Assembly (NCBI GenBank): GCA_031283185.1
Contig: JAITCH010000009.1
Location: forward strand, 1,190 to 65,189
Direction: 5' to 3'
Source of the DNA: Rickettsiales bacterium
GTDB lineage: Bacteria; Pseudomonadota; Alphaproteobacteria; Rs-D84
Length of the DNA: 64,000 nt
Shown here: positions 5,903-57,064 of the stretch, piece by piece
How the letters are laid out: each line of letters begins with the position of its first letter
Position numbering within the stretch: the stretch's first letter is position 1
Made by a program: the position numbers and the translations under genes
The notes under the pieces: model-generated
Database searches by the model: none
Seen by the model: only the letters and a program-made list of their open reading frames with translations
Told to the model about the DNA's origin: nothing

Positions 5903-5918
5903 AAAGTAATTCGATCGT

Positions 5919-6446: not shown

Positions 6447-6488
6447 AAAATGATTATATCACAAACCCGGAAATTTTTCTATTTATAG

Positions 6489-9718: not shown

Positions 9719-9796
9719 TTTTACCTCGTATTTGATTCTTATCAGGATTTTACAACAAAGAATTAATTTGTCAACAGGTAATTTCGCAAATTAATT

Positions 9797-10615: not shown

Positions 10616-10623
10616 TTGCAGTC

Positions 10624-12792: not shown

Positions 12793-12899
12793 ATTTATCC
12801 TCATATCTAAAAATGCTTTATTATTACATAATTTTAATTTAATAACGCACAAAGTCAATCACTTTATAGAGAAATCCGTGAATAGATCATTCATCACGC

Positions 12900-13739: not shown

Positions 13740-13772
13740 TCTAGTAAATATCTTACCCCTTACGCAAACGAA

Positions 13773-14070
13773 AAATTCCCCCTCTGCTTGATGTGGTCGC
13801 ACAATAGTCCCCTTCGCTGGCGAAGGGGTGGATGCCGAAGGCAGACGGGGTAGTGGTAATAATTGCCTCGCCCGGCTTTGCCGGGAGAGGAACGAAGCCC
13901 GGCAACTTGTTGCCGTAGGCTGAGTGGTGAGGGCAAGCGCAAAAGCCCTCACCGGATTTTCTAAATTCGCCTTGCTCATTAATAAAATCCTCCTCTCCCA
14001 CCTTCGGCGGGCAAGGCTATTATTAACACCCACCCCCATACCCCACCTCATCCTCCACACCCCCACCCCA
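13773..14070. repeat. Array of nested palindromic (RPE/REP-like) elements
   Basis: Units such as gtccccttcgctggcgaaggggtg...cggggtagtggt and gcctcgcccggctttgccgggagagg, shared with more than 20 other loci in the window. Confidence 0.8.
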
Positions 14071-14117
14071 AACGCATTTTATCTTGACAAAATCAGTATT
14101 AGGGGTTAGAATGCAGT

Positions 14118-15008: not shown

Positions 15009-15041
15009 TCATAGCAAATGATAATACTCAGTCCGGCGACG

Positions 15042-19416: not shown

Positions 19417-20451
19417 TTATCTCGCTCTCTGAGCCGGGCGACAGACGCGGTATTGCATAAATTTCGGGGTATTTCGCATAGCCATCATATGTTGGACGCT
19501 GACATTTGATACGCGTTTGATTTCGTTGCCGTCTGCGAATTTTGGATCTACCACGCGGTTTTTAATATATACATTTATTGGTGCCCACGGACAACCCATC
19601 TGCATATTTGCTTCGGGCGGGCGGTTCAGCGCGTGAAGATATTTCCGAATTACTCCGTCTGTCCTAGCGGCACATTTAAGGTCTGTTATGATGGCGTCAT
19701 CGCCGTATTTCCAAAGGTCTTCGCGTTTTACATAACCCTTAGAGATGGCATAAGATAACATTTCGCCGTTCAGTCCGAACATTACGGCGTCCTCAAAATT
19801 TGCATATGCGATTTCATTCATCACTTGAAAGTTTTCGACAAATCGGCGCGCTGGTTCAACGCTATTAAAAATTATTTCATTGTCCCGAATGACCAGCGCG
19901 TCAATAATGGCGGAGAAATATGACGGGGCACCATCTTCTTGGCGAAGGCGCATTCCGCCGACCAGCGAATAATCAATTCGGTCGGCGCAAATGTCGGGCA
20001 GATTGTTTTCCAATAACGGGAAGTTCGCCGGGTTTAATATGTATTCGGTGTCCATTTTGTGATGCTCGAAAATTTCGGGCAGTTCGGATTTCAAGACGAA
20101 ATCGCGGTGAAACGGGTCGTGTCCGGGCTGGGCTTTTTGATTGTCAAGGGTGGAATCTATGTAATCAATCGTGTGGGATAATGCGGGGTGGGACACATCG
20201 TGGATTAAACCGGCGGCTTGTTCTTCCAGACGCGCGCCCAAGCGGCGCAGTAAAAGGAATACGCCGATCGAATGTTCCAGGCGATTGAACGGGAAGTCTT
20301 TTTGCGCGCCGGGGTAATAGCCACCCATCTGAATTTTGCCCAGACGACCAAGGGATGGCGATGCCATCAGGTCGATAAGGACTTGTTCGGTTATGTTAAA
20401 ATCGCCGTAAAGAGGATGGTTGATTTTGACCATAGTGTTGCATTCTGCCAT
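19417..20451 (-). CDS. HD-domain phosphohydrolase
   Basis: HSIGV...IHDVSH...DRID metal-binding motifs. Start trimmed to MAECNT; the track ORF is extended through the repeat array to 20637. Confidence 0.65.
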   Translation of the reverse strand: MAECNTMVKINHPLYGDFNITEQVLIDLMASPSLGRLGKIQMGGYYPGAQKDFPFNRLEHSIGVFLLLRRLGARLEEQAAGLIHDVSHPALSHTIDYIDSTLDNQKAQPGHDPFHRDFVLKSELPEIFEHHKMDTEYILNPANFPLLENNLPDICADRIDYSLVGGMRLRQEDGAPSYFSAIIDALVIRDNEIIFNSVEPARRFVENFQVMNEIAYANFEDAVMFGLNGEMLSYAISKGYVKREDLWKYGDDAIITDLKCAARTDGVIRKYLHALNRPPEANMQMGCPWAPINVYIKNRVVDPKFADGNEIKRVSNVSVQHMMAMRNTPKFMQYRVCRPAQRAR

Positions 20452-20474
20452 AAATTCCCATTTTGTCAAGCCCC

Positions 20475-20640
20475 AAATTCCCCCTCCAATTAATAAGTCA
20501 TCCCCCGGCTTGACCGGGGGATCTCGGCAAATAAATTCCCCTCCAAGGTGGAGGGGTGCCGCGCCGTAGCGAAGCGTAGGCGGACGGGGTGGTTGGTGTT
20601 TACCAACACACTTGCCCAAATCACCCTCCCCTTGCACAAG
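20475..20640. repeat. Composite palindromic element array
   Basis: gtcatcccccggcttgaccgggggatc, then aattcccctccaaggtggaggggtg...cgtagcgaagcgtaggcggacggggtggtt. Confidence 0.8.
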
Positions 20641-25443: not shown

Positions 25444-25539
25444 TCTCTGTTAATGATTTATTTTATCATATTTATATCCCTCCACCAAGCAAAAAAATGT
25501 CCCCTCAAAGGCGAAACCATCTGGACGGCGCAGCCGGAC

Positions 25540-25690
25540 GGGGTAGTGGACAATAAATTCCCCTCTCATGTGGAGGGGTGTCGCGCCGTAGCGAAGCGTA
25601 GGCGGACGGGGTGGTTGGCGCTTGTTAATCGCACAAATTTTAGCGGGGCGGGGTCTCCCGACCCCGCCCCGAACATTTTATCAACTTTCC
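25540..25690. repeat. Composite palindromic element plus terminator-like hairpin
   Basis: aattcccctctcatgtggaggggtg...ggggtggttggcgcttgttaatcgcacaaa, then gcggggcggggtctcccgaccccgccccgaacattttatc. Confidence 0.8.
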
Positions 25691-25754
25691 ATTTGGAACC
25701 ACTTCTTTTTTATGATATAATGACTACAAATTAAGACCAAAAAGGGAGTCTGAA

Positions 25755-27639: not shown

Positions 27640-28025
27640 CCATTTTTTATTCCATGCCCTCTTGAGGGGCGGGGTTAGGGGTGGGGGTAATTCCCCTCTG
27701 TTTTTCTTTTGTCATTCCCGCGAAGGCGGGAATAGGGCTAATAAATGGTCGCCTCCGGCGACTCAAAATAAATTCCCCTTCAAGGTGGAGGGGTGTCGCG
27801 CCGTAGCAAAGCGTAGGCGGACGGGGTGGTTGGTACTTGTTAATCGCACAAAAGTCCCCTTCGCTGGCGAAGGGGTGCCGCGGAGCGGCGGGGTAGTGGT
27901 AAAAAATTCCCCGCCAATGGTGGCGGGGTGGCGGCGCAGCCGCCAGGGTGGTTAGAAAGCCTCGCCCGGCTTTGCCGGGAGAGGAGGAAACCTCGGTGGC
28001 TCTGCCGCCAAAGGTTTCCGGCGAG
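27640..28025. repeat. Long array of palindromic element units
   Basis: At least five consecutive units (tgtcattcccgcgaaggcgggaat; aattccccttcaaggtggaggggtg; gtccccttcgctggcgaaggggtg; aattccccgccaatggtggcggggtg; gcctcgcccggctttgccgggagagg). Confidence 0.85.
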
Positions 28026-28037
28026 GGCACGCACCTC

Positions 28038-34761: not shown

Positions 34762-35136
34762 TTACTCCGCCACTGGCTGCGCCTCATCGGCTTCGGCCTC
34801 AACCGCGGCGACTTGTTCAGCAACTGCTGCCGACCCATCAATTTCGCTGTCGAATGCGGAAAGCATTTCTGTATCCGCGGCGACTTTTTCTTCGGTAAAT
34901 TCTTCTGCCGGTGCGGATGTCTTGTAAGACTGCACTAACTCGCGCCGTAATCCTTCAATATCCAACTTCCCGCTTGCGATTTCACGAAGGGCGCGCACGG
35001 TATTGCGATCGCCGCTTGCGGGCAAGACGCTTTCCATTCCGGCATTCAGGTCGCGGACGCGTTGCGCGGCGAGCAGGTTCAGTTCATATTTATTACCGAC
35101 ATATTTCAGGGTATCGCTATTTGTAGTGCGTGCCAT
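34762..35136 (-). CDS. rpoZ: DNA-directed RNA polymerase subunit omega
   Basis: KYELNLLAAQRVRDLNAG core motif. Acidic C-terminal tail. Confidence 0.8.
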   Translation of the reverse strand: MARTTNSDTLKYVGNKYELNLLAAQRVRDLNAGMESVLPASGDRNTVRALREIASGKLDIEGLRRELVQSYKTSAPAEEFTEEKVAADTEMLSAFDSEIDGSAAVAEQVAAVEAEADEAQPVAE

Positions 35137-35189: not shown

Positions 35190-36578
35190 ATGCAAGAAAA
35201 AATAATCGTCAAATCGTTTGGGTGCCGATTGAACACGGCCGAAGGGGAAAAACTGCGAATTGTGGCTGCCCGCGCGGGTCTGACGAGCGCGGTTATTTTT
35301 AATACTTGCGCCGTTACGGCCGAGGCAGAGCGGCAGGCAAAACAAGCGATTCGTAAGACAGCCCGCGAAATGCCGGATATGCCGATATATGTGGTAGGTT
35401 GCGCCGTAGATAATAATTCAGATGAATTCGCCACCCTACCCAATGTCGCCGCCACCATCAAAAACTCCAATAAATTTGATATAGACGCATTTAAGTCCCC
35501 TTCGCTTGTGTCGCGCACAAAAGTCCCCTTCGCTGGCGAAGGGGTGGCACGAAGTGCCGGGGTAGTGGTCAATCGGCCAAATAAAATCCCCCCCCAAAAT
35601 AATAAAGTCATCCCGGGGCTTGACCCCGGGATCTCGCCGAATCATTCTCTTTCCGAATCCATAATCATCCAGTCCTACCCAACTCTCACCAAAGGCTTTG
35701 TGCAAATACAGAACGGCTGCGATCACGCGTGCACATATTGTATAGTGCATAAGTTGCGCGGCAAGTCGCGTAGTTTCCCCTACTCTGCGATTTTGGAACA
35801 AACAAGGCGTTTGGTAGAAAATGGTTATTCTGAAATTGTCCTGACCGGCGTCGACATCGCCAGCTATCAAATAGCGGGTGGGGGTCTCCCGACCCCCACC
35901 CGAACATTTTCTGTGGTTGACCTCATTCGCCAACTCCTAACCGACATCCCCGAAATAAAACGCCTCCGCCTGTCCTCGCTAGACCCGGCAGTGGATTGGA
36001 CGCCCTTATTCCAATTAATGCAAGAAGACTCCCGCGTCCTGCCACATATCCATTTATCAATGCAATCCGGGAGCGATGAGATTTTGCGCCTTATGGCTCG
36101 CCGCCACCGCACCGCAAATTTAATTTCCCCCCAAAATAATAAAGTCATCCCGGTGCTTGACACCGGGATCTCGCCGAATATAACCACCTCCGTCGACATA
36201 ATCTGCGGCTTTCCAGGCGAAACAAAGGAACGATTCGCGGAAACGATTGAAACACTCAAAGCCTTGCGCCCAATAAAGATCCACGCATTTCCATTTTCGC
36301 CGCGCCCCGGAACACCGGCGGCGGACTTCCCCGGCCAAGTCCCACGCGCCACAGCGAAAGAGCGCGTGCGTATATTAAACGACCTCGGCGCGCAGTTTTT
36401 GCACGAATTTATGCAAAGCCGAATCGGTTCAACCGCCCAAGTTCTAATGGAAAATAACAACCTCGGCCGGGATGAACACGACATAGAATGCGCCGTCCCC
36501 GACCTCCCCCACAATACGATTGTTAATGTTGTCCTCACCGACATCCAAAACGGAATATTTATCTGTAAAAAACAATAA
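35190..36578 (+). CDS. Radical-SAM methylthiotransferase (MtaB/MiaB family) carrying three in-frame palindromic-element insertions
   Basis: FGCRLNTAEGE N-domain, radical SAM CDHACTYC, TRAM-like C-terminus. Three inserts read in-frame: KVPFAGEGVARSAGVVVNRPNKIPPQNNKVIPGLDPGISPN, AGGGLPTPTRTF and ISPQNNKVIPVLDTGISPN. Confidence 0.8.
   Translation: MQEKIIVKSFGCRLNTAEGEKLRIVAARAGLTSAVIFNTCAVTAEAERQAKQAIRKTAREMPDMPIYVVGCAVDNNSDEFATLPNVAATIKNSNKFDIDAFKSPSLVSRTKVPFAGEGVARSAGVVVNRPNKIPPQNNKVIPGLDPGISPNHSLSESIIIQSYPTLTKGFVQIQNGCDHACTYCIVHKLRGKSRSFPYSAILEQTRRLVENGYSEIVLTGVDIASYQIAGGGLPTPTRTFSVVDLIRQLLTDIPEIKRLRLSSLDPAVDWTPLFQLMQEDSRVLPHIHLSMQSGSDEILRLMARRHRTANLISPQNNKVIPVLDTGISPNITTSVDIICGFPGETKERFAETIETLKALRPIKIHAFPFSPRPGTPAADFPGQVPRATAKERVRILNDLGAQFLHEFMQSRIGSTAQVLMENNNLGRDEHDIECAVPDLPHNTIVNVVLTDIQNGIFICKKQ
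35500..35640. mobile_element. Palindromic elements inserted in-frame in the methylthiotransferase CDS (insert 1, includes a C8 tract)
   Basis: gtccccttcgctggcgaaggggtggcacgaagtgccggggtagtggtc...atccccccccaaaataataaagtcatcccggggcttgaccccgggatctcgccgaat. Identical units occur intergenically elsewhere. Confidence 0.8.
35872..35912. mobile_element. Terminator-like palindromic element inserted in-frame in the methylthiotransferase CDS (insert 2)
   Basis: gcgggtgggggtctcccgacccccacccgaacattttctg. The same hairpin follows clpB, Slam and other genes. Confidence 0.8.
36118..36182. mobile_element. Palindromic element inserted in-frame in the methylthiotransferase CDS (insert 3)
   Basis: ccccccaaaataataaagtcatcccggtgcttgacaccgggatctcgccgaat, a near-duplicate of the insert-1 tail. 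Confidence 0.8.
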
Positions 36579-40245: not shown

Positions 40246-40249
40246 TTCC

Positions 40250-40870
40250 CCTCCGTGGCTATCGAGCTCAATAGTCCCCTTCGCTGGCGAAGGGGTGGAC
40301 GGCATAGCCGGACGGGGTAGTGGTAATAAGTCATTGCCCGACTTGATCGGGCAATCCCGGCCGAATAAAATTCCCCTCCAAGGCTTGTCTCGCCGTAGCG
40401 AAGCGCAGGCGGATGGCGGGGTGTCTGCGAAGCAGACGGGGTGGTTGGCACTTGTTAATCGCACAAAGTCCCCTTCGCTAGCGAAGGGGTGGACTGCGAA
40501 GCAGGACGGGGTGGTTAGAAAACCCTGCCCCCTAATTTTTTTGTCATCCCCGCGCAGGCGGGAATTGAGCCGTAGAACTAGTTAGATTTCAAGTGGCAAC
40601 GCAGAAATCTTACGAGTTCAAGGCGAACATCCCCCGAAAGGCAATCGCAAACATTTCGGCGCACGCTAACGAAGGGGAATCTCAAATTGTAAAATGCAAA
40701 ATAAAATTCCCCTCCAAGGCTTGTCGCGCCGTAGCGAAGCGTAGGCGGACGGGGTGGTTGGTGCTTGTTAATCGCACAAAGTCCCCTTCGCTGGCGAAGG
40801 GGTGTCCGGCATAGCCGGACGGGGTAGTGGTAATAAAAATAATTTTCCTGCCCCGTTGTCAGGGTGGGGG
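40250..40870. repeat. Array of composite units about 150 nt long
   Basis: The composite unit is: aattcccctccaaggcttgtcgcgccgtagcgaagcgtaggcggacggggtggttgg-cacttgttaatcgcacaaa-gtccccttcgctggcgaaggggtg...cggggtagtggt. It is repeated and interleaved with gtcattgcccgacttgatcgggcaatc and gtcatccccgcgcaggcgggaat. Confidence 0.8.
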
Positions 40871-41242: not shown

Positions 41243-41254
41243 TTCATACTCCTT

Positions 41255-41420
41255 ATTAATTCCCCTCCAAGGCTTGTCGCGCCGTAGCGAAGCGCAGGCG
41301 GATGGAGGGGTGCCGCCTTAGGCGGCGGGGTGGTTGGTGCTTGTTAATCGCACAAAGTCCCCTTCGCTGGCGAAGGGGTGCGCCCGAAGGGCACGGGGTA
41401 GTGGTCATAGTCCCGCGTCA
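41255..41420. repeat. Composite palindromic unit (same 150-nt family)
   Basis: aattcccctccaaggcttgtcgcgccgtagcgaagcgcaggcggatggaggggtgccgccttaggcggcggggtggttggtgcttgttaatcgcacaaagtccccttcgctggcgaaggggtg... Confidence 0.8.
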
Positions 41421-41478: not shown

Positions 41479-43953
41479 TTACTTCAACGGCGGGAAACAT
41501 GTTTCTTCGTCCCCTTTATTCAGATTGACGCAACATATCTCACTACCATCAGCTTCTTTAACATATTGTTCACCGACTGACGGGCAGCAACCGAAAGCGT
41601 CGGTTTGGCTGCCGTCATCACAGGTTAGTCCTGCGCCGAAAGCGGCGGCGGACTCGGGCTGATTGGGATTGGAAAAGATCTGTTGTTCCAGTGTTGGAAG
41701 TGCGGCGGCTGGTGCAGTGCCGGGCTTCATAATGTTTCCTGCGGCATCGTATTGCAGACCCAGGTATTTATTGTTTCCGTGGGCGTCAAGGTTATTTCCT
41801 GCGGCTTGGGCATTCTGTTGCTGCTGATATGCTTTTTGTTGCGCGACATATTGTGATTCATACATACTTGATTTATCCAAAAATTCTCTAAGAAATGGTG
41901 AGTTTGCATTATATTCAATTTTCCCTGTGGCAGGATTAACATTTGTTCCGCGCACCTGCCCAACCCAATCCGGATCACTGGCTTTGCCTTTAAGAGTCGT
42001 AGCCATTGCTGTTGCATCATCCAAATTAAAGTCTTTGCGCCCTCTATATGAAGTAGGCGTCAAACCTGCCGTTTGATCAATATTGCTCCAATTTACAATA
42101 ATATCTTTATTGGACAGAACTGTGATGCGGGTTCCTGCTGGTATGGTGAATGGAGGCGTCATATTATCCATCATATCAACAAATAATTTCTGCGTTACTT
42201 TGTCCCACGACTTTATAATTTCCTGTTTGGCCAATTCGGACGAACGAAGTTGCCCGCTCTGCGTAACAGTGTTATTGTTCAGGTCGATTTGATTAACAAA
42301 CTTATCAGATATTGGCGCGACAAGATTGACTGCGGCAGGGACAAGTGATGCCGCCATTGGCATAACGATTTGTTCCAAATAATCTGTGGAACCGCGCCCT
42401 GGAATACCCATTCGTCCCTGTGCATCCGCGGAATATACACTTTTATTAGGCAGATAAAATTCCACTCCATCTGGCCGTATCATTTGATACCATTCAACTT
42501 GTATTCTTCCTATGGTCTTATATGGTCCTGGATATTCTGACCCTGTAACAAATCCATAAATAACCGTTCCTGTCGGAATAATTATATTGCGTTCGCTGTC
42601 GGAGAATACATTTCTGTCGACAACCGCACGAACTGGCAGTTCATGTATTCTGGCATCAACACGAATATCACTGACTATTGTTGCTGGTATGGACTTGAAA
42701 GCGCGCATAACGAACTTACGATTAAAAGTTGTTGCCGTAGATATAATTGCATCATTGTTATCAGCAGACAAAGGCTTCAATACACTCTGCTCCTTAGGTT
42801 TTTCAAATGGTCGTCCTGCCGAACCGATTTGCAAACCACCCAAATCCGCTGTTTCAAGTTGTCTTGCCTTGTTGACTGCGCGTGGTACCGAACCAGAACC
42901 ACTCAGTTGCGGGATACCGCCTTTTGATCGGATTGCTCCACGGGTAGAATTGACATGTTCCGCGTCCGAGCCGATTTTTTTATTTTTATCGCGCAGGTCG
43001 TATATAAAGCCGGTTTCTATATTATATTCGCCAGTGGGTTTTTGGCAGTCGTTGTCGGCAAAAGGATGCGCCTTGAAAGTTCCGTTATCCGGGCGAATAA
43101 AGAATGCTTGTTGACCTGACAGGTTGTATCCGACGAAGGCATATTTATAACAATCCTCCACCGCCGAATCAAATGAATAGTCATCTTCTAAATTCCCCGC
43201 CAAGGGTGGCGGGGTGGCGGCATCGCCGCCGGGGTGGTTCGATGTTCCCCCTCCAAGTTGTATTGGCTCCGCAACCGCCGGACTGCTTACCACTTCCTCA
43301 GCATCTGTCATTCCCGCGAAGGCGGGAATCTCAGATTGTTCAGAAACTATCGGCGCAGCCGGCTCCGATGAATTCCCCGCCAAGGGTGGCGGGGTGGCGG
43401 CATTGCCGCCGGGGTGGTTCGACTCATCCGTCGCCTTCACCGACTCCACATTTTCACTTTTAACTTTTGATTCTTCACTCTTAACTCTCAGCGCAATCGG
43501 CACGACGAATTTCTTTGCGGCCTCCGCGGGCGCGCCGACATCGCTGTGTGCGATGATGATTTTTGCATTGCCGCTTTTCGCGCCTTTTGCGGGTTTCCAA
43601 ATCAGGTTAACATTGCAAGGAATTCCAGCGGCGATGCGTTGAAGTCCCGCGCAAGTATTGGTCATAGTCAAACTGGAATCTTTGGATTCCAAAGATACGC
43701 CGTGTATTGCGATTTCCTGTTCAGAAGAAATGACGATGGATTCTTTGACTTCCTGCCCGGATACCGATGCGATGGATATATCAGACGGAGTGGCTTTTAT
43801 GATGGAATTGCTTGCGCCCAGCCCGCCGCCTTTGCCACCTGCGCGTGGTAGGATTACGACTGCGAATATCAGGAGTAGCATTGCGGCGATACCAAGTAGA
43901 GTCCAGCGCAAGTATGCGGGACTAGACTTTTTGATATTCTGAATATATTGCAT
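41479..43953 (-). CDS. Type IV secretion system VirB10/TrbI-like protein (possibly DotG/IcmE-like), with in-frame palindromic-element inserts
   Basis: TM helix. C-terminal IPTGTVIYGFVTGSEYPGPYKTIGRIQVEWYQMIRPDGVEFYL...GIPGRGSTDYLEQ matches the VirB10 beta-barrel domain. Inserts encode EIPAFAGMT and NHPGGDAATPPPLAGN. Start trimmed to MQYIQNIKK at 43953. Confidence 0.65.
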   Translation of the reverse strand: MQYIQNIKKSSPAYLRWTLLGIAAMLLLIFAVVILPRAGGKGGGLGASNSIIKATPSDISIASVSGQEVKESIVISSEQEIAIHGVSLESKDSSLTMTNTCAGLQRIAAGIPCNVNLIWKPAKGAKSGNAKIIIAHSDVGAPAEAAKKFVVPIALRVKSEESKVKSENVESVKATDESNHPGGNAATPPPLAGNSSEPAAPIVSEQSEIPAFAGMTDAEEVVSSPAVAEPIQLGGGTSNHPGGDAATPPPLAGNLEDDYSFDSAVEDCYKYAFVGYNLSGQQAFFIRPDNGTFKAHPFADNDCQKPTGEYNIETGFIYDLRDKNKKIGSDAEHVNSTRGAIRSKGGIPQLSGSGSVPRAVNKARQLETADLGGLQIGSAGRPFEKPKEQSVLKPLSADNNDAIISTATTFNRKFVMRAFKSIPATIVSDIRVDARIHELPVRAVVDRNVFSDSERNIIIPTGTVIYGFVTGSEYPGPYKTIGRIQVEWYQMIRPDGVEFYLPNKSVYSADAQGRMGIPGRGSTDYLEQIVMPMAASLVPAAVNLVAPISDKFVNQIDLNNNTVTQSGQLRSSELAKQEIIKSWDKVTQKLFVDMMDNMTPPFTIPAGTRITVLSNKDIIVNWSNIDQTAGLTPTSYRGRKDFNLDDATAMATTLKGKASDPDWVGQVRGTNVNPATGKIEYNANSPFLREFLDKSSMYESQYVAQQKAYQQQQNAQAAGNNLDAHGNNKYLGLQYDAAGNIMKPGTAPAAALPTLEQQIFSNPNQPESAAAFGAGLTCDDGSQTDAFGCCPSVGEQYVKEADGSEICCVNLNKGDEETCFPPLK
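43190..43460. mobile_element. Palindromic elements inserted in-frame within the VirB10-like CDS
   Basis: aattccccgccaagggtggcggggtggcggcatcgccgccggggtggttcga (two copies) and gtcattcccgcgaaggcgggaatctc. Confidence 0.8.
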
Positions 43954-44112: not shown

Positions 44113-45624
44113 TTACTGAATCCTCACCACATTGCACGCAGTGTTCTGGAACTTGGAAAGTTTCTCACACAACTGCTGCGCTTCATCAATGGACGACAGC
44201 GGACCTACTCGCAACCGATATAACCGCCCTGCGGACGCGCTGGTTCCAAGCGGCCCCACGCCTTGTTCATCAACGGCGAAGAACACTTTGGACGCATATG
44301 GTCCCAAAATACCTTGTCCGCCACCAGCCGAGAAATTCGCCAATAATTTATTCCAGTATTCGCTGAGTGCCTTGACCGAGGTGTCGGATTGAAGTTCAAC
44401 GGCGACACCTTTTTGATTGCTGGCGATTATCGGGACATCTCGGTTTGGCAAGTATGCTCCGGCGGTCAGGCGCGGCGCGGCTCCACCACTGCCGATAAAG
44501 GCATCGTGATCGGTTCCACCACCGCCGCCACCCATCATCATCACGGGCGCGCCATACATAGACGAAGTATCAATAGTTCCATACATCATATTTTGATCCA
44601 TCATCATTCCGCCGCCCATATAGGCATTGTTCAACGAAGTGTTGGAATTCATGCGTTGCATAACATTTGCCTCGGCAAGTGCCATCACGGACGCGGAGTC
44701 GGATATAAGGAATGGCTTGGCGCGTTTCTTTATGCAAACTAACCGCTGACCAGAGCGCAAGACCATATCGCCAACTGCTTCAACTATCAGCAAGCGGCCA
44801 TCGGGGCCATCAGTGCGGAATCCGACCGGGGATTCGCCGCCCTCTATTAATACGCTAACGACTGGCCGTTGAGTCATTGCGATTACCTTGTCGCCGAAAT
44901 CAATGTAAGTGAAAATTCGGTCGCGCCATACGCGTTCCGGGGCGATGACATAGTCGTCTGGGTTGGGGACGAAGATGTCGAGGTCAAAGCGGAATTCGGA
45001 CGGGTCGATTTTCATACTTTTTATCCAACCATAGTCTTCGCCATCAAAGCTGACTGCCGGGGCGGAAGATTTGCCTTTGTTGATTAATGACTTGCTGCCG
45101 AATCCGTTTGAGCCATTAGAGCCGCCGGATATAAGACCCTGACGACCTTCAATGGTTATGTCGACTTGCGAGTATGTTATTTCGGACGCGTTTGCGGGTT
45201 CCGAGCGAAGATAGAAAACATACTTGTTTCCAGATTTTCCTTCAACGATCATATTGGTATCCGAACCTTGATTTTCTGCCTTTGGAGAAATAGATATGGT
45301 TCGTTTTCCAGTCAAATTATTTAGGAATTCGAATAGCGCATTGTTTCCGATAATGGCATCTGCGATTTCCTCACCTTCTGGAAGATTGATTATTGTTACC
45401 ATACCTTGGCGTAGGCGGATTGTCAAAATTGTTCCTGGCGACCAAGATAGTTGTGCATATCCGGGGCGGGACGAACCGGCGGCCATATTGGCTTCGGGAT
45501 TATCCCAAGCATTTTGGACACCGAATTCGTTGGCCATTGCGTTTGACGCGGCGAATAGCATAACCGCCACCATTAACATTGCCGTCAATTCCCCTCCGAA
45601 TAAAATCTTTTTAACTTTCATCAT
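44113..45624 (-). CDS. VirB9/TrbG-like (possibly DotH/IcmK-like) secretion protein with Gly/Met-rich linker and C-terminal SPOR-like domain
   Basis: Signal peptide. Central beta-rich domain. GGGMMMDQNMMYG...MMMGGGGGG low-complexity linker. C-terminal RLYRLRVGPLSSIDEAQQLCEKLSKF is SPOR-like. Confidence 0.5.
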   Translation of the reverse strand: MMKVKKILFGGELTAMLMVAVMLFAASNAMANEFGVQNAWDNPEANMAAGSSRPGYAQLSWSPGTILTIRLRQGMVTIINLPEGEEIADAIIGNNALFEFLNNLTGKRTISISPKAENQGSDTNMIVEGKSGNKYVFYLRSEPANASEITYSQVDITIEGRQGLISGGSNGSNGFGSKSLINKGKSSAPAVSFDGEDYGWIKSMKIDPSEFRFDLDIFVPNPDDYVIAPERVWRDRIFTYIDFGDKVIAMTQRPVVSVLIEGGESPVGFRTDGPDGRLLIVEAVGDMVLRSGQRLVCIKKRAKPFLISDSASVMALAEANVMQRMNSNTSLNNAYMGGGMMMDQNMMYGTIDTSSMYGAPVMMMGGGGGGTDHDAFIGSGGAAPRLTAGAYLPNRDVPIIASNQKGVAVELQSDTSVKALSEYWNKLLANFSAGGGQGILGPYASKVFFAVDEQGVGPLGTSASAGRLYRLRVGPLSSIDEAQQLCEKLSKFQNTACNVVRIQ

Positions 45625-46252
45625 TTGAACTATGCTCCTCGGTTGCCGTATCAAGGTTTTCGATTCTGTAATCTGCTACTTGCACTCCAAAGGGGTTATC
45701 CAGTCGGTCATTCCAACGAATGTTCCTGCTGTCTTCAAAGTGTAGTTTCAGTATTATTGTAGCCTCTTCTTGGGTGGTGTGTCCAGCGACAAGTTCCTTT
45801 ATTTTTCGGACACGGATTGCGTATCGGTCTTGCCCTCGGGGCGTTGGATTTTCAAGGAAAACTATACGCGTAGTCCAGAATGGTTCAGCGGCCAGGACTT
45901 CCTTTGTCAAGGGTTCTGCGGAGAATTCACGAAAAACTTCTGATGTTGACCAGGCGCGAACACGGCCTGTCATACCCCAGCGGCGGGACATAGTGCGCGA
46001 TGATGGGTAGACGCTGAGGCGTTCGACGACATATTGGCGGATGAAGTTTTGTTTGAATAGCTCTAGGTTTTTGGCGTCTGGGTAGTATGGGGCGACGGCT
46101 ATGTAGCGTTCAGATTCTGCGGCGAAGAAGACTTGTTTTTTAACGAGCGGGAATAGTCCGTCGAGTGTTGCCCACAGGACGAATATGACGACGAGTTGGG
46201 CTGCGAGTGCAAAGCCCATGATACGGGACATAATGAATCCCGGAGTAATCAT
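45611..46252 (-). CDS. Type IV secretion VirB8/DotI-like protein
   Basis: N-terminal TM helix, then NTF2-like domain ending in ...NPFGVQVADYRIE (compare the VirB8 C-terminal NPLGFQVTSYR). Confidence 0.65.
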   Translation of the reverse strand: MITPGFIMSRIMGFALAAQLVVIFVLWATLDGLFPLVKKQVFFAAESERYIAVAPYYPDAKNLELFKQNFIRQYVVERLSVYPSSRTMSRRWGMTGRVRAWSTSEVFREFSAEPLTKEVLAAEPFWTTRIVFLENPTPRGQDRYAIRVRKIKELVAGHTTQEEATIILKLHFEDSRNIRWNDRLDNPFGVQVADYRIENLDTATEEHSSNDES

Positions 46253-46324: not shown

Positions 46325-46510
46325 TAAAAATTCCCCACTTTTCTTTTGTCATTCCCGCGCAGGCCGGGATATTTGTAATAAGTCATTGCCCGACTTGATC
46401 GGGCAATCTCGGCAAAAAATTCCCCTCCAAGGCTTGTCGCGCCGTAGCGAAGCGCAGGCGGATGGAGGGGTGTCGCGCCGTAGCGAAGCGCAGGCGGACG
46501 GGGTGGTTAG
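46325..46510. repeat. Palindromic element array
   Basis: tgtcattcccgcgcaggccgggat; gtcattgcccgacttgatcgggcaatc; aattcccctccaaggcttgtcgcgccgtagcgaagcgcaggcgga (two copies)...ggggtggtt. Confidence 0.8.
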
Positions 46511-47310: not shown

Positions 47311-49739
47311 TTTCTCTCATCTCCGCTTTGAATGGCATTTATCTCACATTGTATTGATTTCAATATCTCTTTTATTTCTATCTGTGTCTGAACCAAAACT
47401 TCGCTATAACCTTCATCATCCGCATCTGTCGGGTCGTCCTTTTTATTCGGCTCATTGCTATCTTTTTGTGTCTTGCATTCCGACCAACCATCTTTAAGGC
47501 AATGGCTTTGCTGACCGGATTCGCATTTTCCATTTTTATCAACGGCCCTGCCATTTATACCAAGAATATCTCCAGTTTTGCGAGAATATAACCAAGCACC
47601 AATAACTGGTCCATCCGTAGTAATAATCGCCAAATCCCCTTCTTTTAATTTTGAATTGCAGCAATACATATCTCCGCTTTCATTTGGCATTGGATCGGCA
47701 AAACAGTGTTCTAAATCCTCATTAGCTTTTTTTCTAAGCTCTTCCGCAGCGGCTATTTTTTGTTTATCTTTTTCTTCCGCTTTCGGAGTTTTGGAAGAAC
47801 ATCCCGTCCAGCCGTCTTTTGCACAATAATTCTTACTTCCCTCGTTGCACTTATCTGCATTTATATCATAGTCAATAGTTGCATTATTTTTATATTCACT
47901 AAGCCATTTTGTGCAATTTTTACCATTTTGGTCACAAACCTTTTCTTCTTTAAGATCAGAGTTGCAACAATAATATTCTCCAACCTGCTGTCCTTTGTTA
48001 TTTTTCAGCTGAATACATTTTTTAGTCATTGCCTGTGCTTTGGATTCATTGGATTGTTCACAGTCTGACCAATGAGATTTGAAACCACCTCTGCCAGAAC
48101 CGACACATTTGCGCTCATATCCATTTTTTTCACAGATGTCTCGGGCTTCCCCGATTTTATTATAAGATATATATGCTTTAAGTTCGGCTCGAATTTCATC
48201 ATATTTTTTATCTTTTATTCCGCAACACTCATACACATAATATTCGTCCGGACGGTCATTTTGGTAGCCTGCCGCCAGACAAACTCCCCCATCTATATCC
48301 GCCTTAAATTCTTTTTCTAATTTTTCATCCTTTGCTATATTTTTTTGCAAATCTTTAATTTCTTTATCTAATTTTTTTTGTTTATCTTCACACTTTGACC
48401 ATTTGCCGCCGCTTTGACAAGTCCGTTCTTGATCTTCGCTCTTGCAATTCGTTTGGTCCACACCACCCGTCCGAATATCTTTAATTGGATATGCTCCGGC
48501 TATTAATGACACTCCTTCATCTTGACTTAAATCACAGCAGAAATGGTAAATATCGCTATCCTTTCCTTTTACGCATTTATTTTTAAGTATTTTTTCAAGA
48601 TCTGCTTCTTTTTGATTTTGTCCCTTGGTATTTTTGCAATCCGACCATTTCCATTCTCCACCATAAGATGAATTTCCAGTATCGGAGGTATCTGCGACGG
48701 CACTTCCTCCTTGATACATACAAGTTCTTTCTTGTCCTTCATAGTTGCAATCTATTTTATTGCTTTTGCCTTGTTTATATGTTTGCGCCAATCCTGCAAA
48801 TTTTTCACCGCAGCAATGGGTTTTCCCATCAAGACCTTTCTTGCACGATTGCGAGTTTGCGAATTGTTCTCTTTTGTTCGCATCGTTCTTTGCTTGATTT
48901 TCAACTGCTATTCTGTCTTTCTCTGCTTGTATTTTCGCAGCCTCGTCTGCCTTTCGTTTGTCCTCAGCTACTTTGGCCAGTCGCACAAGTTCTTTATCTT
49001 CCTTGCATACCCATGTTTGGGATTCGCAAGTTAATGCCGCTGTATTTTTGCAAAAAGTATCTTTTGGATCGGTCAGAATTCCGCCGTTTCCAATTTGCAT
49101 AACCACCCTTCCGAGACCTAATTCTAGCCTTGTCCAATGATGCCCCACGCCAATTCCACAACAAGTATAAGAGCCGGATGTTAATTCTTTGCATTTTTGG
49201 TCGGCTTTCATTTTCTTTATTTCGTTTTCGTTTTCCGCTTTTGTTCTGGCAGCTTGGCTTGCTTGCTGTGATGCTTGGTTTGCTGCTGCGGAATCGGCGG
49301 CGGAAAAATTGGAATTTGCGGCTGCGGCACCTTGATTATCATCTCTCGCACGATTGACCTGTTGTTCTGATTTTACTGGGCACGAACAAATTACGGATTT
49401 TCTGTCGGCCGATCCTGATCTAGACTCACAATATTTTTCTAAAATTTGTTTTCGCCAAGCATCCTCAGCCATTGAGAATTTAGTATATTCTTCTATTACT
49501 GCTCTTGATGGATATTTATCTGTTTCACTTTTTTCTAATGAAATTTGTTTTCCACATTCAGCAAATGCGATCGCCTGGGAAATTTGTAAATTCAGAGTTA
49601 AAAAAACAAAGGCAGAGCAAAATAACCTAATAGAGTTTATAGGTGTGTGTGTGTGTGTGTGTGTAGGTTTCTGCCATTTTTCATTGTCTCGCCTGTTTTT
49701 CTTATGTCTAATTATATCAGATTCCAATCCTATTTCCAA
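47304..49739 (-). CDS. Large secreted repetitive lysine-rich cysteine-motif protein (HxCC...WSxC repeats); 5' end runs through an (AC)11 tract
   Basis: Signal peptide LFCSAFVFLTLNLQISQAIAFA immediately 3' of the THTHTHT-encoding (AC)11 tract. Repeated HCCGEK/HFCCDL/YECCGI/YYCCNS/MYCCNS and WSDC/WSKC/WTGC/WSEC motifs. The track start is a TTG overlapping the -35 box, so the true start is uncertain (see findings). Confidence 0.6.
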   Translation of the reverse strand: MEIGLESDIIRHKKNRRDNEKWQKPTHTHTHTPINSIRLFCSAFVFLTLNLQISQAIAFAECGKQISLEKSETDKYPSRAVIEEYTKFSMAEDAWRKQILEKYCESRSGSADRKSVICSCPVKSEQQVNRARDDNQGAAAANSNFSAADSAAANQASQQASQAARTKAENENEIKKMKADQKCKELTSGSYTCCGIGVGHHWTRLELGLGRVVMQIGNGGILTDPKDTFCKNTAALTCESQTWVCKEDKELVRLAKVAEDKRKADEAAKIQAEKDRIAVENQAKNDANKREQFANSQSCKKGLDGKTHCCGEKFAGLAQTYKQGKSNKIDCNYEGQERTCMYQGGSAVADTSDTGNSSYGGEWKWSDCKNTKGQNQKEADLEKILKNKCVKGKDSDIYHFCCDLSQDEGVSLIAGAYPIKDIRTGGVDQTNCKSEDQERTCQSGGKWSKCEDKQKKLDKEIKDLQKNIAKDEKLEKEFKADIDGGVCLAAGYQNDRPDEYYVYECCGIKDKKYDEIRAELKAYISYNKIGEARDICEKNGYERKCVGSGRGGFKSHWSDCEQSNESKAQAMTKKCIQLKNNKGQQVGEYYCCNSDLKEEKVCDQNGKNCTKWLSEYKNNATIDYDINADKCNEGSKNYCAKDGWTGCSSKTPKAEEKDKQKIAAAEELRKKANEDLEHCFADPMPNESGDMYCCNSKLKEGDLAIITTDGPVIGAWLYSRKTGDILGINGRAVDKNGKCESGQQSHCLKDGWSECKTQKDSNEPNKKDDPTDADDEGYSEVLVQTQIEIKEILKSIQCEINAIQSGDERKC

Positions 49740-49830: not shown

Positions 49831-50015
49831 CCCGCAAAAAACATTAGGGGTATCGCAACGGCACGGCAGGCCGTCCAATACCAAGAAACGGCAGGGCGCG
49901 GTGGGCTGGATGCCCATAAGTTTCCCTGCCGTTCCGCCGCGTAGTGGGCGGAAATGACGCGGCGGGATGAAAAACACCCCTTATGTTTTTTGTCCTTTTA
50001 TGTTATAATACCTTT

Positions 50016-51278
50016 ATGAAACTCCAATTGGTGGCATTGTCCGCCCTGCTTTTAACAGCCTGTGATGTGCGGGAAAAGATTACCGGGCGCGCCACAGAAC
50101 CCGACCGCGCCACTGGCGACTTTTGGGAAATTCCCCTCCAAGGTGGAGGGGTGCCGCGTAGCGGCGGGGTGGTTGAGGATTACGGCACATTCCAACCCAC
50201 ATACCTTGCAACGGCTAACCCAAGCGAATACCACCAAACGGCGAATATGGCGGATTATATTCCACCAACCCCACCTGCGCCGGTCATAACGCAGGATGAA
50301 GAGCCCGAAGATACATTGCTAGTGCCGAAACGCGCCGCGCCGACACCTGCGCCTGCTGCGGTCGCGCCCAAACAAGATTTGATCAAGGTCGCACCGGGCG
50401 ACACGCTTTATTCCATTTCGCGGAAATATAATGTGCCACTCCGCGACCTTATTACATCGAACAAGTTGGAAGCACCTTACGCGTTGAAACCGGGGCAAAC
50501 GCTTTATATGCCATCTCAGTTTGTGCATACGGTTGCGAAGGGCGAAACGCTGTATAGCATTTCGCGGCTGTATCAAATGGATACGAATAGTTTGGCTACG
50601 ATGAATAGTTTGAAGGAGCCGTATTCGCTGAAAGTTGGTCAAAAACTCATCCTCCCCGCCCAGATTCAGTTAACAGATACTAAGTCCCCTTCGTCTGGCG
50701 AAGGAAATAATAAGTCATCCTCCGACTTGATCGGGGGATCTCGGCCGACTTCTCCTGCCCCCGTAGCCGGGGGCGGGATGTCCGGCCCTGCCGGACAGGG
50801 TGGGGGTAATGTCCCCGCGGCAGAACCCACCCGCACACCCGAACCAAAGGTCGTGAAGAAATCCACACCGGTTTCAAGCCTGGCCAAGGCACCCGCACGG
50901 AGCAGTAGTAAGTTTGCCTGGCCAATCCGCGGGACAATACTCTCGCCATTCGGGGCGAAACCGAATGGCCTTTATAATGACGGAATTAATATCAAAGGCA
51001 CCAAGGGCGCACCGGTTTCGGCGGCGGAAAACGGAGTTGTCGCATACGCCGGGAACGAGATAAAAGGTTTAGGCAACCTCGTCATAATTAAACACGCGGA
51101 TGGCTTTATGAGCGTGTATGCCCATCTTGACACGATATTGGTTGAACGCGGGAAACAAGTATCAGTTGGCGCGAAAATCGGCTCAGTCGGACAAACGGGC
51201 AAGGTCAATTCACCACAATTACACTTCGAAGTCCGTAAAGGCACGAAAGCCTTCAACCCCACCAGTTATCTCCGATAA
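50016..51278 (+). CDS. LysM-domain M23 murein endopeptidase lipoprotein (NlpD-like) with in-frame palindromic-element inserts
   Basis: Lipobox LLTAC. Two LysM motifs (DTLYSISRKYNV; ETLYSISRLYQM). C-terminal M23 domain (HADGFMSVYAHL...GQTGKVNSPQLHFE). Inserts encode IPLQGGGVPRSGGVV and KSPSSGEGNNKSSSDLIGGSRP...GGGNVP. Confidence 0.8.
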   Translation: MKLQLVALSALLLTACDVREKITGRATEPDRATGDFWEIPLQGGGVPRSGGVVEDYGTFQPTYLATANPSEYHQTANMADYIPPTPPAPVITQDEEPEDTLLVPKRAAPTPAPAAVAPKQDLIKVAPGDTLYSISRKYNVPLRDLITSNKLEAPYALKPGQTLYMPSQFVHTVAKGETLYSISRLYQMDTNSLATMNSLKEPYSLKVGQKLILPAQIQLTDTKSPSSGEGNNKSSSDLIGGSRPTSPAPVAGGGMSGPAGQGGGNVPAAEPTRTPEPKVVKKSTPVSSLAKAPARSSSKFAWPIRGTILSPFGAKPNGLYNDGINIKGTKGAPVSAAENGVVAYAGNEIKGLGNLVIIKHADGFMSVYAHLDTILVERGKQVSVGAKIGSVGQTGKVNSPQLHFEVRKGTKAFNPTSYLR

Positions 51279-54149: not shown

Positions 54150-54252
54150 CCCTGCCCCCTTGAGGGGCGGGGCGGTCGCTTTTATGCGACCGGGGGTGGG
54201 GGTTAATAAAAGCGGGTGGGGGTCTCCTGACCCCCACCCGAACATTTTATCA
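54150..54252. repeat. Nested palindromic elements plus terminator-like hairpin
   Basis: ccctgcccccttgaggggcggggcggtcgcttttatgcgaccgggggtgggggtt; gcgggtgggggtctcctgacccccacccgaacattttatc. Confidence 0.8.
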
Positions 54253-54923: not shown

Positions 54924-57020
54924 ATGGAACCAGAACAGACATCTTCACCGACCGAAGCACTAAAAAAGTTCACGACGGATTTCACGGAACTTGCGGCGGC
55001 GGGCAAACTTGACCCAGTAATCGGGCGCGATGACGAAGTCCGCCGCGCTATCCAGGTCTTGACGCGCCGCACGAAAAATAATCCAGTGTTAATCGGACAG
55101 CCGGGCGTGGGTAAAACGGCTATTGCCGAAGGCCTCGCCCACCGCATCATCGCAGGCGATGTGCCGGAAAATTTATTGGGGCGCAAAATCCTGTCGTTGG
55201 ATCTTGGGGCATTAATTGCGGGCGCAAAGTATCAGGGTGAATTTGAAGAAAGGCTGAAAAATGTGCTCCGCGCGGTCAAGGAATCGGATGGGAAAATCAT
55301 CCTATTTATAGACGAACTTCATATGGTGGTGGGCGCGGGCAAAACAAGCGGCGCGATGGACGCGGGGAATCTGTTGAAACCAATGCTTGCCCGCGGCGAA
55401 TTGCATTGTATGGGCGCGACGACATTGGACGAATACCGCGAGTATATAGAAAAAGACCCTGCTCTCGCCCGCAGATTTCAGCCAGTTTTCGTGGACGAGC
55501 CAAGCGTGGAAGACACCATTTCGATTTTGCGCGGATTAAAAGAAAGATACGAAGGCCACCACGGCGTGCGTATTTCCGATGCCGCATTGGTAGCGGCGGC
55601 GAGGCTGAGCGACCGCTATATCCAGGATAGATTTCTGCCCGACAAAGCGATTGATTTAATTGACGAGGCGGCCGCGCGTGTCCGCATTACGATTGCTTCA
55701 AAGCCGGAAAAATTGGACGAGATTGATCGCAGATTGACGCAGATGAAAATAGAGCGCGAGGCATTAAAAAAAGAAAAGGACGCGGATTCCAAAAAGCGGC
55801 TTGCCGAAATTGAAACCGAATTGACCGACATAGAAAAGCAGTCCGCAACTATGAACGCGGAATGGAAAACAGAGCGCGAAAATATGAAATCATTAGCGCG
55901 TGCGATTGAAGAACTTGATGCGGCGAAAGCGGAAATGCAAAGTGCCGTGCGCCGCGGCGATTACGCGGCGGCAGGCAGTTTGCAAAACGGGCGCATTCCA
56001 GAACTCAACACACAAATTGCGGAACTTGAAAAGACTAATACCGAAGACTTAAAAACCGTATCCACCGCGCATATTGAACAGGTGGTGTCGAAATGGACGG
56101 GGATACCCGTGCAGAAATTGTCCGCGGATGAACAGACAAAATTGCTTGGGATTGAAACCGAACTTGGCAAGCGCGTAGTTGGCCAAGACGAGGCTCTCGG
56201 CGTTATCGCGCGTGCTATACGCCGTAGCCGCGCGGGATTATCCGACAGCCGCCGCCCGCAGGGATCGTTTATGTTCTTGGGTCCAACTGGGGTCGGAAAA
56301 ACGGAATTGGTAAAGGCGGTTGCGGAATTGTTGTTTGACGATGATGCCGCAATGACCAGGATTGATATGAGCGAATATATGGAGCCGCATTCGGTGTCGC
56401 GTTTGATCGGCAGCCCTCCGGGTTATGTTGGATATGAGCAAGGCGGGACTCTGACGGAATCGGTTCGCCGCCGCCCGTATCAAGTGGTGCTGTTTGATGA
56501 AATTGAAAAAGCGCACCGCGATGTTTTTAATGTCCTGCTCCAAGTTTTGGACGACGGGCGATTGACTGACGGACAGGGTCGCACTGTTAATTTTTCTAAT
56601 ACGATAATTATTATGACATCAAACCTCGGCTCGGATTTATTGTTGGAAGACGCGACAAATACGGACGGGGTTATGGCATTGTTGCGAAGCACGCTCCGCC
56701 CAGAATTCTTAAATCGTATTGATGAAATAATAATGTTCAAGCCGCTTGCGCGCGAAGTAATGGATAAGATAGTAGAGATACAACTTAGCGATCTCACCCG
56801 TCGACTTCAATCACGCGGCTTTGGTTTGCATACATCAAAAAAGGCAATCGATTGGCTCGCGGACAAGGGCTATGATCCGATGTTTGGCGCACGCCCATTG
56901 CGGCGTTTGATTATGTCAGAGGTTGAAGACAAAATCGCCGACTTGATATTGTCGGACAAATTAAAACCCGGCAGCACCATAGATATAGATACCAAATCCA
57001 ACAATTTAATTATAGCATAA
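54924..57020 (+). CDS. clpB: Chaperone ClpB lacking the N-terminal domain
   Basis: Begins directly at the NBD1 pre-Walker region ([16 protein letters not shown]...GQPGVGKT). M-domain coiled coil, NBD2 [14 protein letters not shown] sensor. No upstream coding sequence (promoter within 130 nt). Confidence 0.85.
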
Positions 57021-57060
57021 AGCGGGTGGGGGTCTCCCGACCCCCACCCGAACATTTTAT
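57021..57060. terminator. GC-rich hairpin element after clpB (terminator-like palindromic element)
   Basis: gcgggtgggggtctcccgacccccacccgaacattttatc. The same element occurs at 35872, 54212, 59030 and as a variant at 25648. Confidence 0.55.
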
Positions 57061-57064
57061 CACC

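Follow-up and report, generated by a model that had tools for sequence, protein, structure and literature searches.

Palindromic repeats, nearly all in one orientation, lie in frame within conserved genes of an uncultured Rs-D84 alphaproteobacterium

Palindromic elements that occur in frame inside protein-coding genes are classically known from Rickettsia, where they are termed Rickettsia palindromic elements (RPE; Ogata et al. 2000, Science 290:347, and Ogata et al. 2002, Genome Res 12:808, both by way of the summaries in PMC10969869 and PMC3733652). Short repetitive extragenic palindromic sequences (REPs) comprise a GTAG-tagged and a CGTC-tagged superfamily (Di Nocera, De Gregorio, Rocco 2013, PMC3733652). 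The CGTC REPs, which predominate in alphaproteobacteria, have stems of 8 or 9 bp that start with A-T pairs and loops of 4 nucleotides (nt; family 1) or 5 nt (families 2-4), and they correspond to dRS3 of Neisseria, RPE-6 and RPE-4 (PMC3733652). They are without a dedicated transposase and are intragenic in many species; intragenic REP products are known from Starkeya, Wolbachia and Sphingomonas, and the REP peptides listed include VIPGLDPGI from Starkeya novella (CGTC-3), VIPVLDTGI from Wolbachia wRi (CGTC-4), and WMPAFAGMT and VIPAKAGI (CGTC-1) (PMC3733652). Here we analyse a stretch of 64,000 nt, hereafter the window, from a Rickettsiales bacterium (GTDB Rs-D84; assembly GCA_031283185.1, contig JAITCH010000009.1, positions 1,190-65,189, forward strand), in which palindromic repeats fill intergenic DNA and also lie inside three intact genes, encoding an MtaB-like methylthiotransferase, an NlpD-like lipoprotein and a VirB10-like secretion protein. 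All coordinates are positions within the window, and L-numbered loci are contigs of relatives or metagenomes that were compared with it.

According to our analysis, the elements are selfish hairpin repeats of the REP/RPE type, several families of which would have multiplied in this alphaproteobacterial genome. The copies now seen in genes would be the survivors that landed in disordered, length-tolerant linkers and loops, kept the frame and brought in no stop codon; they would be translated as neutral or near-neutral peptides, and the host proteins would stay functional. We put the probability of this reading, as far as it concerns the identity of the elements and their tolerance as inserts, at roughly 85%. 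That the intergenic units are also found inside intact conserved genes had been proposed in an original prediction made from the letters of the window, and it is borne out by DNA identity, by alignments of MtaB, by the retained catalytic residues and by an AlphaFold2 model.

The repeats are numerous. A repeat scan of the window, with a host G+C of about 47-50%, yielded at least 60 direct-repeat families of short stem-loops, and the window has 92 perfect hairpins with a stem of 7 bp or more, versus 11-24 in five mononucleotide shuffles. The modules are 25-65 nt long, often chained in mosaics, and occur at a density of ~1 per 1.2 kb. Five module families were grouped from the direct repeats, and a census by sequence patterns counted 27 copies of F1, 10 of F2, 11 of F3 and 5 of F4 in the window:

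F1: double hairpin, (A/T)AGT-CCCCTTCG-ctgg-CGAAGGGG-TG-(second hairpin)-GGGGTAGTGG; sub-types have first stems CCCCGCCA or CCCCTCCA
F2: GTC-ATCCCGGGG-cttga-CCCCGGGAT-CTCGCCGAAT
F3: (C/T)GTC-ATCCCGGC-gaag-GCCGGGAT
F4: AGCGGGTGGGGGTC-tccc-GACCCCCACCCG-AACATTTT, a 12-bp G+C-rich hairpin
F5: CCCTGCCCCC...GGGGCGGG, a second hairpin and GGGGGTGGGGG

Element cores make up 1529 of 7840 bp of intergenic DNA (19.5%) versus 483 of 52660 bp of DNA in open reading frames (ORFs; 0.9%). Nine or ten of the ~54 modules lie inside mtaB, the nlpD-like gene and virB10, the remainder being intergenic. The frames are kept in these genes, as had been predicted, but 60-90% of the frames of individual modules are free of stops anyway, and the preserved frame is therefore a matter of a selective filter, i.e. 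survivorship, and not of design. No match to Rfam was found in the whole window at gathering thresholds, so the repeats are not a curated RNA family.

The mtaB gene holds four modules at three sites, which agrees with the predicted positions, and its closest intergenic counterparts lie in an array elsewhere in the window:

35190-36578, + strand: intact gene of 462 aa for an MtaB-like radical-SAM methylthiotransferase of the MiaB/RimO family (Pfam UPF0004 and Radical_SAM)
35503-35642, + strand: insert site 1 (aa 105-151), within the linker that connects the N-terminal MTTase domain with the radical-SAM core; encodes SLVSRTKVPFAGEGVARSAGVVVNRPNKIPPQNNKVIPGLDPGISPN
35867-35913, + strand: insert site 2 (aa 227-241), an F4 module in a loop of the core, with a 12-bp hairpin at 35875-35902 followed by AACATTTT; encodes IAGGGLPTPTRTFS
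36115-36179, + strand: insert site 3 (aa 310-330), a second F2 module (CGTC-3/4-type) in a loop of the core; encodes NLISPQNNKVIPVLDTGISPN
58833-59071, + strand: intergenic array F2-F1c-F1-F4, with the closest sister copies of the MtaB modules

Site 1 is made up of a short hairpin/linker, an F1 double hairpin (35517-35572) and an F2 hairpin with an A/C-rich leader (35578-35642). Its F1 copy is 100% identical over 48 nt to intergenic DNA at 58971-59018, and its F2 copy is 97% identical over 36 nt to 58862-58897. The array shares the hypervariable second hairpin GGCACgaaGTGCC and the 3' flank GGTCAAT with the F1 copy of MtaB; since the match takes in both, this copy and the one at 58971-59018 are sister copies. 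The F4 module of site 2 agrees with 57021-57058 at all of 38 nt (100%) and is 97% identical to 54211-54248 and 59023-59060. The F2 module of site 3 shares 91% of 65 nt with the copy in site 1 (35578-35642) and differs from it by a compensatory stem change from GGG/CCC to GTG/CAC. Overall, identity between the MtaB segments and intergenic copies is 91-100%, over stretches of 36-56 nt. Folded as single-stranded DNA, the inserted segments reach z-scores of -3.2 to -6.3 (-4.0 for site 1 and -6.3 for site 2).

In alignments of 19 and 61 sequences (the latter being the window protein and 60 homologues), the window MtaB exceeds its homologues in length at three variable sites only. Site 1 measures 66 aa versus a homologue median of 27 (+39), with most columns occupied in only 1-6 of 60 homologues, and by this alignment it is a clean insertion of about 40-46 aa. 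Site 2 measures 21 aa versus 16 (+5), its central columns being occupied in 2-7 of 60 homologues, and site 3 measures 29 aa versus 20 (+9). At sites 2 and 3 the net gain is smaller than the element, which has therefore partly replaced ancestral residues; at site 3 part of an ancestral helix was replaced. The 61 aligned sequences have 68 invariant columns, and the window protein retains every one of them, including the six Fe-S cysteines (C12/C40/C71 and the CxxxCxxC motif C177/C181/C184). The AlphaFold2 model built from the 61-sequence alignment has a predicted template modelling score (pTM) of 0.82 and a mean predicted local distance difference test score (pLDDT) of 83. Values of pLDDT under 50 are confined to inserts 1 (residues 113-146) and 3 (residues 320-328), and the block 231-240 (insert 2) has a value of 63. 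Comparison with orthologues and the model place the inserts in a variable linker and loops of low pLDDT, and it is very unlikely that the segments are ancestral protein sequence.

The rpoZ gene (34762-35136, - strand) is divergent from mtaB, and this arrangement is kept in the relatives L018, L019 and L020, so their MtaB proteins are orthologues. Among public homologues, the nearest share 53% identity with the window MtaB and belong to metagenome-assembled genomes (MAGs) labelled Rickettsiales or Alphaproteobacteria. An exact-sequence look-up of the window MtaB protein returned no record, and a HMMER search with the 47-aa peptide of site 1 against 1.84 billion representatives gave 0 matches. 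Candidate peptides from the inserts, read from the sequence, are KVPFAGEGVAR, VIPGLDPGISPN, IAGGGLPTPTR and NHPGGNAATPPPLAGN. MtaB is conserved but is not known to be essential, and the label essential that the original prediction gave it is dropped.

Three modules each are found in the M23 lipoprotein and in VirB10, all in linkers and again where they had been predicted, and the recurring peptides quoted there are all present:

49983-51278, + strand: gene for an NlpD-like lipoprotein with a lipobox, two LysM domains (best stretch 182-225) and Peptidase_M23 (332-426), by Pfam
50125-50179, + strand: F1-type double hairpin with stem CCCCTCCA, in the linker just after the lipoprotein signal peptide; encodes WEIPLQGGGVPRSGGVVED; fold z -4.35
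50691-50812, + strand: F2 (50691-50750; reads NNKSSSDLIGGSRP) followed by a double hairpin of F5-like type (50752-50812), both within the LysM2-M23 linker; fold z -4.1
41479-43953, - strand: VirB10/TrbI-like type IV secretion gene, with Pfam TrbI at aa 421-618 and its likely start Met at 43953 (the ORF as listed extends to 44043)
43187-43244, 43301-43337 and 43367-43424, + strand: F1b, F3 (CGTC-1 type) and F1b modules, read antisense by virB10

All of these inserts lie outside Pfam domains in poorly alignable linkers. The F2 module of the nlpD-like gene is read in another frame than those of mtaB. In VirB10, the modules encode SNHPGGNAATPPPLAGN, EIPAFAGMT and SNHPGGDAATPPPLAGN and occupy the periplasmic linker that joins the membrane helix to the TrbI domain. 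Identity is 98% between the two F1b copies and 88-90% between these and the intergenic copies at 19327 and 27905. The gene adjoins those for CagX/VirB9 (44113-45654) and VirB8 (45611-46252).

As a separate observation, the VirB10 C-terminus (41479-41600; CCPSVGEQY...CCVNL...ETCFPPLK) is shared with a 404-aa, F1-bearing ORF of L007 from the Rickettsiales MAG Gsp477_bin73 (CCAGESLQY...CCPSGG...ECFPPLR). This Cys-rich tail is conserved and lies outside the TrbI model. Coding status was rejected for the copies in ORF 12900-14066 and the HD-domain gene 19417-20637, which count as intergenic, and for those in the 5' part of the virB10 ORF; all of them lie upstream of plausible Met starts or signal peptides. 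The ORFs 25453-25734, 27647-28030, 40295-40585 and 58863-59144 were regarded as spurious, being frames that run across arrays of repeats.

Relatives have comparable inserts. Those in MtaB of L018 and L019 are likewise built from repeats that are found elsewhere in their own contigs. In L018 the insert is a CDSPQGGS/TPPLGGV palindrome; in L019, sites 1 and 3 carry the hairpin CTCCCCC-ttgc-GGGGGAG and site 2 a canonical unit TGTC-ATGGTCGGG-(5-nt loop)-CCCGACCAT-CCA. We argue that unrelated families at the same MtaB sites represent independent hits on permissive loops. The palindrome of the L018 MtaB is also present at 14738-14851 of that contig within a TatD_DNase gene (13895-15115; 406 aa), whose Pfam domain is in two parts and which it appears to split.

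A 24-mer of F1 is present in 17 loci of species-representative genomes, which are gut, rumen and termite MAGs including Candidatus Enterousia, and in 31 metagenome contigs. Most of these loci have one copy, and the module density of the window is therefore exceptional. In contigs L023, L027, L031, L036, L041, L043 and L051, F1 lies in frame in Pfam-confirmed proteins, namely in Der/EngA between the two GTPase domains, in RsmH, in the C-terminal tail of ribosomal protein L3, in the central loop of a major facilitator superfamily (MFS) transporter, in a Mur ligase, at the N-terminus of MltG, and in a reverse transcriptase that contains two copies in opposite orientations together with CGTC-1 units. 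A further in-frame copy is in a VirB10-like protein, which is named by C-terminal resemblance only. The VPFAGEGV frame of F1 is used in at least seven ORFs (L007, L027, L036, L041, L051 and L039/L050), with Pfam domains confirmed for L027, L036, L041 and L051.

The F4 module, of which one copy lies inside mtaB, had been thought to double as a transcription terminator. It does match a loose terminator pattern, on both strands, and a terminator role is plausible as a prediction from this pattern. Its T run is short and begins 4 nt after the stem, and only two of the four intergenic copies (54205 and 57015) stand just after the 3' end of a + strand gene; the other two are in a divergent spacer (25636) and behind a - strand gene (59017). 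One copy is placed where it could act as a terminator:

57015-57066, + strand: intergenic F4, directly after the stop codon of a Clp ATPase gene (54924-57020)

Could the inserts instead have been domesticated, with peptides or RNA/DNA hairpins that function as flexible linkers, interaction motifs or attenuators tuning mtaB, nlpD and virB10? Repeat inserts are found in the same MtaB loops of several lineages, the VPFAGEGV frame recurs as described, and F4 is terminator-like. However, unrelated families at the same sites fit loops that are permissive and not a peptide that is needed, and disorder is predicted for the inserts. The reading also varies, with F2 in one frame in MtaB and in another in NlpD, and with the elements antisense in VirB10. 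Their near-100% identity to intergenic copies moreover implies recent arrival and not long-term selection, and we give domestication little credence. Decay of the affected genes into pseudogenes, with frames open by chance because G+C-rich repeats rarely hold stops, would fit the mostly open module frames, the low MtaB score given below and the tendency of symbiont-like genomes to accumulate pseudogenes. It is very improbable given the 462 uninterrupted codons of mtaB, the invariant columns and Fe-S cysteines retained in it, the confident core of the AlphaFold2 model and a frame kept at three independent sites; the NlpD-like and VirB10 domains are intact as well, and so are Der, RsmH and MltG in other contigs. 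By these predictions mtaB is an intact gene whose protein would be functional, and the uninterrupted frame with all invariant residues speaks against the pseudogene objection that the original prediction had itself raised.

The last reading of this kind takes the segments for linkers of low complexity that are ancestral and look like the repeats through convergence in composition, or for an assembly artefact that collapsed repeats into genes. The linker regions are indeed variable in all homologues, and the source appears to be an uncultured organism without proteins in public collections. Against this, stretches of 38-56 nt are 97-100% identical to intergenic copies, including the hypervariable hairpin and flank shared with 58963-59017; the frame is kept across three junction pairs, which is rare for mis-assembly, and the phenomenon recurs in independent assemblies, so that such an origin is scarcely credible. 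The tolerated-insert reading has its own difficulties. The best NCBIfam model for the ORF at 35190-36578, MtaB TIGR01579, scores 324 bits, below its equivalog cutoff of 357; the subfamily model TIGR00089 scores 281 bits, above its cutoff of 251, and the shortfall is plausibly due to the inserts. The replacement of residues at sites 2 and 3 may have brought some functional cost, and we infer the translation of the inserts and the activity of the host proteins from sequence.

The near-total co-orientation of the modules is the most unusual feature of the window and was overlooked in the first reading. Fifty-three of 54 modules are on the + strand, and repeated non-palindromic 14-mers number 726 in the major versus 11 in the minor orientation. 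Genes are found on both strands (34 on -, 14 on +, with 70% of gene bp on the - strand) and module density is alike in convergent, divergent and tandem spacers (3.8-6.7 per kb), and the orientation is therefore not tied to transcription. The GC skew of the window is ambiguous as to replication direction. In the closest relative contig, L019 (21 kb), the polarity is 73:1, with the same orientation relative to mtaB.

F1 has sharply defined ends. Its anatomy is (A/T)AGT, the border, CCCCTTCG-CTGG-CGAAGGGG-TG, a hypervariable C-GNA-G mini-hairpin, GGGGTAGT, the second border and GG, with neither a GTAG nor a CGTC tag at the stem. These borders are conserved in 46-49 of 49 copies, and no target duplication is visible. 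The first hairpin is conserved; the second has 47 different arms among 85 copies from ~50 contigs. Closure by C-G is seen in 46 of 49 second hairpins, and G-N-A triloops (C-GNA-G) in 28 of 49, the latter being the motif of the very stable DNA mini-hairpins of the d(GCGAAGC) type. Repeats also lie within repeats, as in one dense mosaic:

40246-40600, + strand: dense intergenic mosaic of F1, F2, nested F1 with loop insert, F1 and F3, all head-to-tail

At 40366-40460, 41250-41330 and 46428-46510 a further unit, CTTGTCGCGCCGTAGCGAAGCGTAGGCGGA, which holds a GCGAAGC mini-hairpin, is nested in the first-hairpin loop of some F1-type units; repeats thus insert into repeats.

In IS200/IS605 elements, an orientation bias is tied to the lagging-strand template, and HUH/Y1 transposition is single-stranded and coupled to replication (PMC6006769). 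The polarity, the F1 mini-hairpins and the sharp borders suggest a resemblance to this process. It is possible, although we regard it as doubtful, that the repeats spread as folded single strands in step with replication, by means of an unlinked HUH/Y1-type or other single-strand enzyme; such spread would explain why 53 of 54 copies are co-oriented. A more specific and unlikely proposal is that F1 is the signature of an undescribed, strictly strand-polar single-strand mobilisation system. At the replication fork, an unlinked enzyme of the host or the element would cleave one strand behind AGT and insert F1 in its folded form, and this would yield head-to-tail mosaics with one orientation per replichore. 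If true, it would give a handle on the long-open question of how transposase-less repeats of the CGTC or RPE type move and enter proteins.

Several results weigh against a single-strand step. The polarity that supports it is limited to one 64-kb window and L019; L018 is less polar (391:93), and in distant genomes both orientations of F1 occur, with close inverted pairs a frequent arrangement. No type of transposase was revealed by Pfam scans of 49 ORFs of the window, that of MtaB among them. A profile made with 12 published RAYT/TIRYT sequences found no such ORF among all those of at least 50 aa in the window and 51 loci (387 kb), and a single-copy RAYT elsewhere in the genome is possible. The repeats may alternatively spread by gene conversion or template switching between hairpins, the orientation resulting from selection against inverted copies (long cruciforms, SbcCD substrates) or from a chromosome-polarity function. 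This rivals the mobilisation step only and not the identity of the elements. Compensated perfect stems are what quasi-palindrome correction is expected to produce, and they are seen in six F2 stem versions, with fully compensated changes, and in the 47 F1 arms among 85 copies; sequence was also replaced and not added at MtaB sites 2 and 3, and the literature, like our scans, reports no transposase for CGTC REPs. However, conversion needs a pre-existing homologous target, which is unlikely in the unrelated genes mtaB, der, rsmH and mltG, and the sharp F1 ends, after (A/T)AGT and between GGGGTAGT and GG, look like cleavage sites. On these grounds we hold conversion to be improbable as the route of spread.

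Taken as REP/RPE-type repeats with tolerated in-gene copies, the elements bring the RPE phenomenon into a second alphaproteobacterial lineage, which is uncultured, moderate in G+C and related to inhabitants of termite guts and rumens. The MtaB loops, which were colonised repeatedly by unrelated families, provide a natural map of tolerance for 10-45 extra residues. The inserts also lower family-model scores and create spurious N-terminal extensions, and annotators should mask them. For neither CGTC REPs nor RPEs has such a co-orientation, near-perfect in more than 50 copies and independent of transcription, been described, and it could constrain the mobilisation mechanism if it is genome-wide.

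Three further regions of the window deserve mention. The stretch 3876-13000 contains zero repeat modules, compared with ~1 per kb in the rest of the window. It has a G+C of 38-46% and holds a C5 DNA methylase and HNH endonuclease pair and a dTDP-rhamnose/GDP-sugar (O-antigen-like) cluster, which fits recently acquired DNA that the repeats have yet to colonise. On the - strand at 1-3739, an open frame extends beyond the left edge of the window. It is at least 1246 aa long, codes for a Cys-rich repeat protein (CPAG.../CxxG motifs) and has 58% G+C, well above the window average. A conserved unit of ~110 nt is present in three copies, all on the - strand (49627-49677, 60785-60823 and 63806-63853), with an extended -10-like TGATATAAT followed, after ~30 nt, by a very small ORF of 12-16 codons, MAETYTHTHTHT..., whose (AC)n/(GT)n tract varies in length among the copies. 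The units lie upstream of - strand genes, including that of an 811-aa protein without a Pfam match beside virB8/9/10, and may represent either an attenuator with a Thr/His leader peptide or a dinucleotide tract subject to phase variation.

Compared with the described systems, the window is closest to RPEs and CGTC REPs. As in the RPE, in so far as the summaries of the original work describe them, palindromic repeats of several families per genome are both intergenic and in frame in unrelated genes, where they would be translated as extra peptides at places that the fold would tolerate. F2 and F3 belong to the structural classes of RPE-4 and RPE-6 (CGTC-4 and CGTC-1), with the matching peptides VIPxLDxGI and IPAxxGMT (PMC3733652), a comparison made by published description. 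The link to RPE that the original prediction drew is thus closer than was claimed; in-frame insertion is nevertheless not a hallmark of Rickettsia alone (PMC3733652), and the novelty had been overstated. The window differs from the RPE in that the host is outside Rickettsia, the modules are 25-65 nt long versus roughly 100-150 nt in RPE-1, and all but one copy are co-oriented. We found no RPE counterpart of F1, F4 and F5, which are set apart by descriptions.

The assignment of F2 and F3 follows from architecture and peptides. F3 has a stem ATCCCGGC/ATTCCCGC of 8 bp starting with AT and 4-nt loops GAAG or GCAG, as in CGTC-1, and its 11 copies are tagged with CGTC (5), TGTC (5) or AGTC (1). F2 has 9-bp stems starting with AT and the 5-nt loop CTTGA in 10 of 10 copies, as in CGTC-3/4; its tag is mostly AGTC, with one TGTC, so that it agrees with a CGTC tag only in part. 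Published CGTC REPs are mostly head-to-head dimers with a CCA tail, whereas the window has singletons or head-to-tail mosaics, without inverted dimers, and tails CTC/CCC (F2) or ATA/CTC (F3); copies in L019 carry the canonical form TGTC...CCA. The MtaB and VirB10 inserts encode VIPGLDPGI, VIPVLDTGI and IPAFAGMT of the published list (PMC3733652). By this match in architecture and peptides, F2 and F3 are members of the known CGTC-tagged superfamily. F1 and F4 peptides have no counterpart in the REP peptide table of PMC3733652, a full-text literature search for the F1 core sequence found no paper, and F1, F4 and F5 are apparently further, undescribed families.

F1 resembles GTAG REPs, the REPIN/RAYT system and IS200/IS605 in its short hairpins, the lack of target duplication and a conserved tetranucleotide at the junction. 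It differs from GTAG REPs in having no 5' GTAG at the stem, the GTAG lying 3' of hairpin 2 within GGGGTAGTGG, and from REPIN/RAYT in that the window scans found neither inverted doublets nor a RAYT or TnpA gene. F4 is similar to intrinsic or SPRITE-like terminators in its 12-bp G+C-rich hairpin and short T run, but the T run lies 4 nt off the stem. In-frame insertion of REPs is thus already known in and well beyond Rickettsia; what is new here is the F1 family, the repeated use of the MtaB loops and the co-orientation of the copies.

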